From Candidatus Babelota bacterium (GTDB lineage: Bacteria; Babelota; Babeliae; Babelales; Vermiphilaceae), in NCBI GenBank assembly GCA_039809905.1, contig JBDHVY010000001.1, positions 750,001 to 782,000 of the forward strand: 32,000 nt of DNA, read 5' to 3'. This document shows positions 16,437 through 18,008 of this stretch, piece after piece. Under the pieces are notes generated by a model, which saw only the letters and a program-made list of their open reading frames with translations, made no database searches and was not told the DNA's origin. Made by a program: the position numbers and the translations under genes. Positions within the stretch are counted from its first letter, which is position 1. Every line of letters begins with the position of its first letter.

Positions 16437-18008
16437 TTAAAAGTTAATTCCAGTTTCCACTTTAAGCACATCACACCAACTAGAATTACATCTTGTTGTG
16501 CGGAATGCGCTGAGACATGTCCAACAAAATTCATGAGAGCATTTTTTACAAGTAATATGATTACATCCTTGATTTTTTTCAATGAAAACTTTGCAATGGG
16601 GGCAGGGCTTTATTTTGATATTTTGTAGTTCTTGTAAGCTTGATTCCGTTTGGGATCGATCTCTTGCTGCAGCTTGGCAAGATGTATTACGAGCATGTCT
16701 GGTGGCGCATGAAATACAATCATGATCTAATGTAGCGGCATTTTCGCACGACAAGTTTTGATGATCATATTGGCATGTTGCACAATATATATGGTTGCAG
16801 CTAGGACAATGTATTTGTTGTGCAGCAGCAACTTCTTCAATTGAATAGGTGCATTTACAATCTGGTGTTGGGCAAAATTTTATATAATTTTGATTGTCTG
16901 TCTTAAATTCATCAAAAGAAAATTCAAGAAAGCGATTATACAGATTTTTACAATTTTGTGTAATGTTGTATATGTCAGAAGCATTTATTTTTTTTGTACA
17001 GTTAAAATTAGGACATTTTAACTCTCGGGTACTTCCTTCATTCAAATGAGTTGAGATGAGTTCGAGCAAGCAAGTTTTGCAAAAGCTTGCTTGGCAGCCT
17101 GATTGGTGATTGCAATTGTTCATGGCATAAAATTCAGCATAATTTTTTGTGTCTAAACAGAGTGAGCATTCTAGATTTAATGAATTTAACAAAGCATTAA
17201 TATTTGCATGATTAACTCTTGCTGCATAATCAAATACTGTATCTCCGTTCTTTTGCTTTAAATGCAATATGTTATAACCAAGCATTTGAATAAATACTTT
17301 AAGGACATTGGCATGACTTTTTTTTGAAAAAGGTGTTTGTACAGCTTTGTGTACTGCTGTTTGGCCCAAAGAATCATAAACGGAAGCAAGTTCTTGCGCA
17401 GAATCACTTGCAGCTGTTAAAAGGATTTCAGTTGCTTCAGCATGACCATTTCCTGCTGCCAAATGTAGAGCTGTGTAACGGCTATGTTTTTGTAAAAAAA
17501 GAAATCTTTTTAAATTTTTGTAATGAGTATCGGAAGCATTAATTAATGTTTTGATGGCTTGTATATGACCATTCATTGCTGCAAAATGTAGAGGAGTGCT
17601 GCCGCTACCGTTATTGCTCTGTGAAATAAAGTTCTCAGAATTTTCTGTGTTTCTATGTATTTCTATTAATGTTGTAATGGCAGCAGCGTGGCCATTTTCC
17701 GCTGCTTTGTGAATTCCTAGAAAGCCATAGGCACAGGTACTAAATAGGAGTTGTTGTGTGTCATGATTGTTTCTTTGGTCGAAAATTTTCTTAATGCTAT
17801 TATTATCGCCTTGCTTACATGCTAAATGAAGTACATTTTCGCCGTCTTCGTTTCTTTTTTTTAAAAGAGATGTGTCCATGTATGATATGTCAGAAGTTTG
17901 TTGAATTACTCGTAAAAGTTGTTCTGGCGTTTGTTCCATCGCTGTAATGAAAAAAGAGCTTAATAACAGCGAAAAGAATAGCGTGTATTTTTTATAAAAA
18001 TGCATCAT
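16437..18008 (-). CDS. Secreted ankyrin-repeat protein with C-terminal RING1-IBR-RING2 (RBR) E3 ubiquitin-ligase-like module
   Basis: Signal-like leader (YTLFFSLLLSSFFITA). At least 5 ankyrin repeats (e.g. GSTPLHFAAMNGHIQAIKTLI, YTALHLAAGNGHAEATEILL). RING1 CSLCLD...CKTC...CPNFNC. IBR FCPTPDC...CPSCNHIYCATC. RING2 KPCPHCKVFIEKNQGCNHITCKKCSHEFCWTC matches the RBR catalytic-Cys consensus. Confidence 0.85.
   Translation of the reverse strand: MMHFYKKYTLFFSLLLSSFFITAMEQTPEQLLRVIQQTSDISYMDTSLLKKRNEDGENVLHLACKQGDNNSIKKIFDQRNNHDTQQLLFSTCAYGFLGIHKAAENGHAAAITTLIEIHRNTENSENFISQSNNGSGSTPLHFAAMNGHIQAIKTLINASDTHYKNLKRFLFLQKHSRYTALHLAAGNGHAEATEILLTAASDSAQELASVYDSLGQTAVHKAVQTPFSKKSHANVLKVFIQMLGYNILHLKQKNGDTVFDYAARVNHANINALLNSLNLECSLCLDTKNYAEFYAMNNCNHQSGCQASFCKTCLLELISTHLNEGSTRELKCPNFNCTKKINASDIYNITQNCKNLYNRFLEFSFDEFKTDNQNYIKFCPTPDCKCTYSIEEVAAAQQIHCPSCNHIYCATCQYDHQNLSCENAATLDHDCISCATRHARNTSCQAAARDRSQTESSLQELQNIKIKPCPHCKVFIEKNQGCNHITCKKCSHEFCWTCLSAFRTTRCNSSWCDVLKVETGINF

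Follow-up and report, generated by a model that had tools for sequence, protein, structure and literature searches.

A candidate secreted RBR-type E3 ubiquitin ligase with ankyrin repeats, encoded beside an integrase gene at tRNA-Glu in Candidatus Babelota

Bacteria imitate U-box, F-box, RING and HECT-like ubiquitin ligases and have invented the NEL, SidC and SidE chemistries, and ankyrin repeats are often the targeting part of bacterial E3 effectors, as in AnkB. Here we describe a candidate from a further ligase class, the RBR (RING1-IBR-RING2) enzymes, encoded by Candidatus Babelota bacterium (assembly GCA_039809905.1), a member of Candidatus Babeliales (Dependentiae/TM6). The gene occupies positions 16437-18008 on the minus strand of a 32,000-nucleotide stretch (contig JBDHVY010000001.1, positions 750,001 to 782,000), referred to here as the window, and was read from the list of open reading frames (ORFs) with an ATG start and a product of 523 amino acids. 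We propose that it probably encodes a secreted effector acting as an RBR-type (RING/HECT-hybrid) E3 ubiquitin ligase in the host cell.

The best sequence and fold matches to the window protein are the Ariadne RBRs (human ARIH2, ARIH1/HHARI; ANKIB1), with which it has in common the RING1-IBR-RING2 order and the RING2 motif CPxCxxxIEKxxGCNHxxCxxCxxxFCWxC, including the catalytic Cys and His. ANKIB1 likewise joins ankyrin repeats to an RBR module, and a Branchiostoma ANKIB1 cluster is among the matches. Unlike the Ariadne RBRs, to which it is 22-24% identical, the window protein is bacterially encoded, begins with a putative bacterial signal sequence and lacks the Ariadne autoinhibitory domain; its RING1 has C-x5-C in place of C-x-H, and an extra duplicated CCHC unit follows the IBR. 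Annotated RBR modules also occur in giant viruses of protists (Hokovirus, Klosneuvirus, Fadolivirus and the Megavirus 'ariadne-like' protein), another kind of intracellular protist parasite, and match slightly better in structure and sequence than the human proteins (Hokovirus, 1.5e-15, 27% identity). Giant-virus RBRs are made in the host cytoplasm and, unlike the window protein, need no export signal; their experimental characterisation was not found in the literature searched.

The strategy of an intracellular bacterium supplying an E3 to its host is that of LubX/GobX (U-box) and AnkB (ankyrin plus F-box) of Legionella, a Simkania RING ligase (PMC12591485), the IpaH/SspH NEL proteins and the HECT-like SopA/NleL. 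Those effectors rely on U-box, F-box, RING, NEL or HECT-like chemistry and on type III/IV secretion, whereas the window protein combines an RBR module with a putative Sec signal. Within the same phylum, Chromulinavorax destructans and Babela massiliensis (Dependentiae) have proteins of the same signal peptide plus ankyrin format. In the cultured C. destructans there are 98 ankyrin-repeat proteins, 78% of them with signal peptides, for which Sec is the proposed export route (PMC6561590); no enzymatic domain was assigned to them in that study, whereas in the window protein the ankyrin array is fused to a predicted ligase module. In the literature we searched, reviews of how bacteria hijack ubiquitin treat RBR solely as a eukaryotic ligase class, and we found nothing on RBR or IBR proteins in Dependentiae and no report of a bacterial RBR/IBR effector; an earlier computational notice may exist.

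From N to C terminus, the protein consists of a putative Sec-type signal sequence, about six ankyrin repeats and a complete RING1-IBR-RING2 module, and stops at residue 523, which lies 11 residues past the last RING2 ligand, C512. This architecture had been proposed in an initial annotation made from the letters and ORFs alone, and it is borne out by the N-terminal segment, Pfam, PDB alignments and AlphaFold2 (AF2) modelling. Pfam matched IBR_1 (6.2e-12) and, in two stretches, IBR (8.5e-12), above gathering scores. A phmmer search of all PDB sequences with the C-terminal 247 residues returned ARIH2 (5.2e-17), HOIL-1 (3.3e-11), ARIH1 (5.5e-11) and parkin (1.4e-8), together with RNF31/HOIP and CUL9, and the alignments extended from RING1 through the end of RING2 (query positions 3-238 of 247). 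These alignments and the invariant columns described below confirmed that all three Cys/His clusters lie in the C-terminal region, and the catalytic-consensus string quoted earlier for RING2 is present verbatim at residues 469-498, aligned to ARIH2. The annotation had also put its domain assignments up for checking with profile hidden Markov models: Pfam Ank, IBR and IBR_1 all match, whereas RING1 was recognised by no RING model in the Pfam scan. The case for RING1 comes from the PDB alignments, from AF2 with a predicted local distance difference test score (pLDDT) of ~95, and from invariant Cys residues in 35 relatives.

The alignment of these 35 relatives contains 23 invariant columns in all. 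In RING1, the predicted E2-binding domain (16998-17168, minus strand, residues 281-337; assigned from invariant Cys, PDB alignments and AF2), they are C281, C284, C310, C313, C332 and C337, and C299 is at least 90% conserved. The IBR, with two sequential zinc sites (16746-16874, minus strand, residues 379-421), was placed by its invariant Cys/His, the alignment to the ARIH2 IBR and the second Pfam IBR stretch; its ligands are C379, C384, C401 and C404 for one site and C409, C412, H416 and C421 for the other, all invariant except C421. One further invariant residue, C444, lies in an insert that follows. The RING2/Rcat catalytic domain (16473-16604, minus strand, residues 469-512; Pfam IBR_1 6.2e-12) contributes C469, C472, G481, C482, C487, C490, F494, C495 and C498. 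Within it, G481-C482-N-H484 aligns to the GCNH of ARIH2, so that Cys482 (codon 16563-16565) corresponds to the catalytic cysteine and His484 (16557-16559), which is kept in close homologs, to the general-base histidine.

All positions of the RBR zinc-ligand set (eight in RING1, eight in the IBR and eight in RING2) could be assigned; the one departure is RING1 ligand 4, which is not the canonical His. RING1 is non-canonical at ligands 3 and 4, having C299-x5-C305 where C-x-H is usual, and the canonical His aligns to Ala307; C299 and C305 probably supply these two ligands around a low-confidence loop (301-304), as judged from conservation and not from coordinates. The 29 Cys residues in positions 277-523 are all accounted for, with 26 Cys and two His forming seven predicted zinc sites and the remaining three being the catalytic C482, C353 and C386. 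The nine close homologs all share Leu283 (in C-x-L-C) and Pro333 (in C-P), and the equivalent positions contact the E2 in other RINGs. Pfam found no Ariadne domain in the window protein. Among the 35 nearest relatives, all have IBR domains and 11 have ankyrin repeats, and none has an Ariadne, UBA or RWD domain by Pfam.

Structure prediction led to the same assignment. In the full-length AF2 model, the ankyrin domain and RING1 were confident and the IBR and RING2 weaker, and because a fold search with this model filled with ankyrin proteins, we modelled the RBR part alone on a 35-sequence alignment (pLDDT 85.9). All 50 PDB matches listed by Foldseek for the RBR-only model were RBR ligases, led by ARIH2 (1.1e-10) and HOIL-1 (2.5e-10) and including ARIH1, RNF216, HOIP and parkin, so the structural check envisaged in the annotation retrieved only RBR ligases among the matches listed. 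Global TM-scores were low (0.26-0.42) because the three RBR domains vary in relative orientation, and at the level of single domains the folds agree. By these sequence and fold criteria, the window protein qualifies as a bona fide RBR.

The unusual Cys-containing insert between the IBR and RING2, also remarked on in the annotation, is real; it covers residues 422-452 and is kept in five of seven full-length close homologs. Residues 409-430 (CATCQYDHQNLSCENAATLDHD) and 431-452 (CISCATRHARNTSCQAAARDRS) both follow the pattern C-x2-C-x3-H-x4/5-C-x-x-A-A. Local alignment of the two 22-residue units scored 37, compared with 21.7 +/- 4.4 in composition-preserving shuffles, of which 8 of 2000 reached 37. 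The second unit, C431-x2-C434-x3-H438-x5-C444-QAAA, is encoded at 16653-16718 on the minus strand. The insert is best read as a tandem duplication of zinc site II of the IBR that creates an extra, predicted CCHC zinc knuckle. AF2 models the duplicated unit as a beta-hairpin ahead of the long IBR-RING2 helix (pLDDT ~75), and it is present in the homologs P0002, P0003, P0007 and P0008 and absent in P0006 and P0009.

Comparison with related metagenome contigs allowed us to ask how strongly each part of the protein is constrained. Relative to the 69%-identical ortholog on contig L010, the ratio of nonsynonymous to synonymous substitution rates (dN/dS) comes to 0.19 in the RBR module and 0.40 in the ankyrin domain; relative to L006 it drops to 0.10 and 0.20, respectively, and in RING2 to 0.018. 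Judged by these ratios, the catalytic module is under strong purifying selection. The RBR gene of L006 (10001-11560) is full length and 85% identical in nucleotide sequence, compared with 70-78% in the flanking housekeeping genes, and is interrupted by one stop, at codon 348. Of the integrase gene that neighbours the RBR gene in the window, L006 keeps the first ~70 codons, and a 393-amino-acid (393-aa) ORF that accompanies the gene in the window is missing. On L009 (4216-5791), a 1.6-kb deletion equivalent to window positions 15233-16890 removes IBR-RING2 and fuses the 3' end of the integrase to a gene encoding only the ankyrin repeats and RING1, while a truncated 393-aa ORF is retained.

Both contigs thus keep an open ankyrin-RING1 frame where IBR-RING2 has been lost, which, like the non-canonical ligands 3/4 of RING1, would fit a catalytically inert mimic that binds host E2~ubiquitin, ubiquitin or cullin-RING ligases as a decoy or inhibitor, or a protein in which only the ankyrin-RING1 part matters. 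We consider this improbable, given that G481-C482 is invariant in the 35 relatives, that His484 is kept in close homologs and that RING2 is the most constrained part of the protein. Moreover, the codons after the L006 stop still show a dN/dS of 0.09, and the stop is therefore either very recent or an assembly error.

The ankyrin-repeat domain of about six repeats (17181-17861, minus strand, residues ~50-276) was delimited by Pfam, AF2 and Foldseek. Pfam matched Ank_2 (8.1e-30) and Ank_4 (4.3e-19) in the 523-aa protein, the full-length model contains six helix-turn-helix pairs from residue ~55 to 276 with pLDDT >90, and the top Foldseek matches of that model in the PDB were ankyrin-repeat proteins. 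The domain has a dN/dS of 0.20-0.40, above that of the RBR module, and is presumed to be the target-binding part.

The N terminus, encoded at 17940-18008 on the minus strand (residues 1-23), reads MMHFYKKYTLFFSLLLSSFFITA and continues with MEQ. It has a Lys-Lys n-region, an uncharged hydrophobic core of 15 residues and I-T-A at positions -3 to -1, and was classed as Sec-type descriptively, from this n-h-c layout of the sequence and not from predictor output. The segment is conserved in orthologs (79-88% amino acid identity, dN/dS 0.16-0.33), and we regard it as a putative Sec-type export signal. By a crude test, signal-peptide-like N-termini occur in 83 of the 148 closest RBR relatives, compared with 4/119 and 11/111 in controls.

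A Met comes immediately after the hydrophobic segment, and translation could in principle start at this Met24 (MEQTPEQ...), without the 23 upstream codons, giving a cytoplasmic bacterial protein or both forms. Placement of a Met at this point in 32 of 151 family members, well over background, speaks for such a start. It is nevertheless unlikely, since the upstream segment has a complete Sec n-h-c layout and is kept as protein (dN/dS 0.16-0.33), a similar segment occurs in 83/148 relatives of differing sequence, and an export signal agrees with the signal peptides on 78% of Chromulinavorax ankyrin proteins (PMC6561590). The pattern [A/G/S]-M-[E/D] right after the hydrophobic N-terminal segment was counted in 32/151 RBR-family proteins and in 1/119 and 1/111 of the controls, against a background of 0.007 per 35-residue window. 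Its instance in the window protein lies at 17937-17948 (residues 21-24, ITA|M), and homologs that have it include P0146, P0148, P0152, P0158, P0161, P0167 and P0181. The pattern may reflect a signal-peptidase or sorting context peculiar to the lineage, or else an internal start codon that has been conserved and yields two protein forms.

RBR ligases are otherwise eukaryotic, and amoebal giant viruses carry annotated, well-matching RBR ligases (Hokovirus, 1.5e-15, 27% identity), so that contamination from a protist host or a co-infecting giant virus, or a chimeric assembly, had to be weighed. We consider this extremely unlikely. The exact protein was found in the NCBI contig of 1,228,744 bp and independently in the Logan run SRR27308757, whose assembly is 100% identical over the same 6.8 kb. 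On the 1.23-Mb contig the gene is contiguous with tRNA-Lys, tRNA-Glu, MgtE, TamB, BamD and GspE, the window also encoding CdsA, YraN, pseudopilins accompanying GspE/PilB, a PLD-family protein and an RluD-like pseudouridine synthase. GspE is 88% identical to Candidatus Babeliales bacterium proteins and 72% to Candidatus Dependentiae. Two metagenome contigs, L006 and L009, are syntenic over the locus, the RBR gene (35-36% GC) resembles its flanks within an overall range of 33-37%, and the gene has no introns and starts with a putative bacterial-type signal sequence. The bacterial origin assumed in the annotation is therefore upheld by bacterial neighbours, an independent assembly, synteny and GC content.

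Elsewhere in the window, 4828-7640 encodes the GspE/PilB ATPase (TIGR02533, 5.5e-192) and two prepilin-type pseudopilins, part of a type II secretion system (T2SS) or type IV pilus apparatus that could be relevant to the export of signal-peptide effectors. The GC-rich end of the window (30800-32000, 53% GC) was considered as rRNA and rejected; it is a coding region with degenerate GGxGG-type glycine-rich repeats, comprising 22 copies of a 40-nt family, and runs off the end. The first kilobase (1-1000; 40% GC, strong GC skew) may be a similar Gly-rich region on the other strand.

The protein belongs to a sizeable family. When 1.84 billion cluster representatives were scanned exhaustively by HMMER with the RBR module, 8,460 matched at E<=1e-3, 1,182 at <=1e-10 and 21 at <=1e-30. 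A word-index homolog search with the RBR module alone yielded two proteins from 52 candidates, and a scan of species-representative genome contigs, a set that does not include the genome of the window, returned ankyrin-level matches only. The ten closest members that we looked up are unnamed metagenome proteins, and NCBI TET05926.1, annotated 'hypothetical protein [Candidatus Dependentiae bacterium]', belongs to one of the clusters. Plant RBRs, Bigelowiella and Branchiostoma ANKIB1 are among the matches that lack signal peptides.

In a midpoint-rooted neighbour-joining tree of 124 close RBR relatives, built without support values from sequences picked for their similarity to the query, every named eukaryotic sequence fell into a clade of 31, and the window protein was among the other 93. 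Signal peptides were found in 66 of these 93 proteins but in only one of the 31 in the eukaryotic clade. Rough as it is, the tree speaks for an old acquisition that expanded within bacteria rather than a recent amoeba transfer. Two expectations of the initial annotation thus changed: the host-to-bacterium transfer it proposed to test by phylogeny is not indicated as a recent event, the bacterial proteins forming their own group in this rough tree, and the gene is no rare singleton, as ~90 of the closest cluster representatives group apart from eukaryotic RBRs, most with signal peptides.

A broader and distinctly tentative view is that Dependentiae possess a large, undescribed family of Sec-exported RBRs that goes back to a single gain from a eukaryote, later grew and took on a variety of N-terminal targeting domains, and escapes the autoinhibition to which all characterised eukaryotic RBRs are subject. 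In such a family the lineage-specific '[A/G]-M-[E/D]' at the signal end might mark onward delivery to the host, and the duplicated CCHC knuckle might set apart a subgroup in which hinge geometry or the handling of E2 and ubiquitin is altered.

Host manipulation, as already suggested in the annotation, is the best explanation for the window protein because the organism is an obligate intracellular parasite of protists. We infer ligase activity, a secretion route, arrival in the host cytosol, an E2 partner and substrates in a scheme that would run as follows. The signal sequence would send the unfolded protein through Sec, exit from the bacterium would occur by an undefined route such as T2SS-like machinery or outer-membrane vesicles, and the module would bind zinc and fold in the host cytosol. 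There, RING1 would dock a host E2~ubiquitin conjugate, ubiquitin would be passed to RING2 Cys482 as a thioester with His484 as general base, and it would then be moved onto host proteins recruited by the ankyrin-repeat domain. Such a RING/HECT-hybrid mechanism is that of RBR ligases (PMC5770618). The duplicated CCHC knuckle would lengthen the hinge that brings RING2 to the E2. The ligase would probably be constitutively active, since the protein has no Ariadne, UBL or other known autoinhibitory domain.

Several points weigh against this proposal. Sec/periplasmic export of a 29-Cys, seven-zinc module is awkward, we know of no route from the periplasm to the host cytosol in Dependentiae, and the hydrophobic N-terminus could be an uncleaved membrane anchor. 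RING1, which the Pfam scan left unmatched by any RING model, lacks the canonical His ligand, and the inter-domain orientation in the AF2 model is unreliable (predicted TM-score, pTM, 0.57-0.59). Finally, the catalytic half is lost in two of three syntenic relatives, by the stop in L006 and the deletion in L009, and ligase function is therefore dispensable in some lineages.

The gene is carried on an integrative element inserted at tRNA-Glu(UUC) (14760-14837, plus strand; ARAGORN and Rfam), the 3' end of which is the left junction. The window is homologous to a related Babeliales contig, L013, across MgtE, tRNA-Lys and tRNA-Glu, and the homology ends exactly at 14837, the CCA end. Past this point, L013 has a small GIY-YIG gene and then unrelated genes, without the integrase, the RBR gene or the 393-aa ORF, all three of which follow on the minus strand in the window. 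The intact integrase is a large serine recombinase (14781-16286; Pfam Resolvase 1e-20, Recombinase and Zn_ribbon_recom; PHROG 95 integrase, 6.6e-68) whose last 19 codons overlap tRNA-Glu. A junction at a tRNA gene, an integrase gene and an empty site in L013 together mark the segment as an island. Of the recombinase/Rep-bearing element described in the annotation, the integrase at a tRNA insertion therefore stands, while its 'Rep', the 393-aa ORF (18068-19249, minus strand), comes down to one weak match to PHROG 702 'replication protein' (E=4.3e-4), with no match in Pfam, NCBIfam or PDB. This ORF is linked to the RBR gene in L009 and L010/L011 and deleted in L006.

A second att site (attR), sought as a displaced tRNA-Glu fragment or a flanking repeat, was not found. 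Serine integrases need no long repeats, and the absence of attR is not unexpected for an integrase of this type. The right border is undefined and lies somewhere between ~19.3 kb and the small GIY-YIG gene at 22335-22586 (plus strand; an ORF with a blastn match to the L013 GIY-YIG region at 66% identity). In L013, tRNA-Glu is immediately followed by the GIY-YIG gene, which suggests that the island extends over 14838-22334 at most; in L006 the GIY-YIG gene is on the other side, and the border is thus ambiguous. Island carriage is a feature of the window copy and not of the family, because the loci of P0142, P0140 and P0007 have no integrase; these members are in ordinary chromosomal contexts on bacterial contigs: P0142 adjoins full-length PolA with MutS nearby, P0140 shares its contig with several ankyrin genes and a dCache sensor, and P0007 shares its own with PhoH/PIN and a class-II tRNA synthetase. 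Promoter and terminator scans gave nothing better than shuffles.

Several further observations concern the surroundings of the element. Small GIY-YIG copies of ~80 amino acids occur at 22335-22586 in the window and at 12072-12314 in L006, 20148-20390 in L013 and 3481-3714 in L010; their placement with respect to tRNA-Glu and the RBR gene changes from genome to genome, which suggests that the GIY-YIG gene is itself mobile. A ~34-nt GC-rich sequence, AGCCTACGCATAAAGCTACGGCTGGCACGCC, follows tRNA-Lys at 14673-14706, and 91% copies follow tRNA-Glu in L013 (19965-19998) and L006 (12473-12506); it may be a terminator-like element common to tRNA genes. Between the 393-aa ORF and a downstream toxin gene lies a 61-aa basic ORF (19352-19537, minus strand), in a stretch (19359-19774) that L006 and L009 also keep. 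PADLOC does not match this ORF, which might serve the element as a small DNA-binding protein or excision factor.

The toxin is a polymorphic toxin with a C-terminal Ntox17 domain (19851-21668, plus strand; Pfam Ntox17 3.2e-25), followed by a presumed immunity gene (21665-22039, plus strand), so assigned from position only; the region is syntenic in L006, and the pair (19851-22039) possibly lies inside the insertion. The 605-aa Ntox17 protein has a 612-aa paralog (22749-24587), with N-terminal parts 86-89% identical over 2 x 300 nt and differing C-termini, and in L006 and L013 the corresponding place is taken by Ntox17 or EndoU toxins. The Ntox17 3' end recurs as an orphan copy (90%) at 25515-25638, which forms part of a mosaic, 25515-25701, that joins sequences similar to 21540-21663, 19113-19149 and 16322-16354. 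Its last 63 nt (25639-25701) join a copy of 19113-19149 (89%, in the 393-aa ORF) to a copy of 16322-16354 (79%, in the integrase-RBR gap), in reversed order relative to that around the RBR gene, which resembles the circular junction of a 2.8-kb RBR-containing segment; we reached no consistent model of the mosaic as a circular-junction relic of the element. Further along, 26646-27494 encodes a 282-aa AAA_15/AAA_21 ABC-type ATPase with PADLOC matches to the anti-phage defence proteins AriA (1.4e-16), mad3 (1e-16), GajA and PtuA. Repeats at 25792-26005 and 27954-28168 (80-86%) flank the ATPase region, and a 79%-identical copy of the ATPase adjoins the RBR ortholog on L010.

The gene has an integrase on one side, a possible replication gene on the other, and toxin and defence-like genes close by, which would also suit a protein acting in or on the bacterium, held by an N-terminal membrane anchor; its Cys-rich module would then serve the mobile element, or else a bacterial pathway of defence or ubiquitin-like conjugation. 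Such pathways do exist: the statement in the initial annotation that bacteria have no ubiquitin system is outdated, as defence operons with bacterial E1, E2 and ubiquitin-like proteins (Ubl) have been described (PMC10557695; 10.1101/2023.09.04.556158). We found no operon of the Bil/Bub or CBASS Cap2 type, and no E1, E2, Ubl or deubiquitinase gene, anywhere in the 32-kb window. PADLOC matches the ankyrin region only (4e-6) and leaves the RBR module without a match, RBR is not mentioned in the searched paper on bacterial ubiquitin-like pathways, and most family members are outside mobile elements. In addition, Lys-Lys before the hydrophobic core would put the module in the periplasm, which has no known ubiquitin-like machinery. 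We therefore give little credence to a bacterial role and retain the host-directed ligase as our interpretation.

Taken together, the unusual features of the window protein are its bacterial origin, the putative Sec signal, a C4C4-type RING1, the predicted duplicated zinc knuckle and the lack of an autoinhibitory domain. To a specialist, a bacterial RBR effector would probably be expected rather than astonishing. If our interpretation is correct, it raises the question of how a zinc-rich, Sec-exported protein reaches the host cytosol in bacteria seemingly without type III/IV effector secretion, and it would provide naturally minimal RBR enzymes without autoinhibitory domains that are useful for mechanistic work. 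A conserved and constrained RBR family in Dependentiae would fill the remaining class of bacterial E3 mimicry, and would offer the first enzymatic handle on host manipulation by an almost unstudied phylum of protist parasites.

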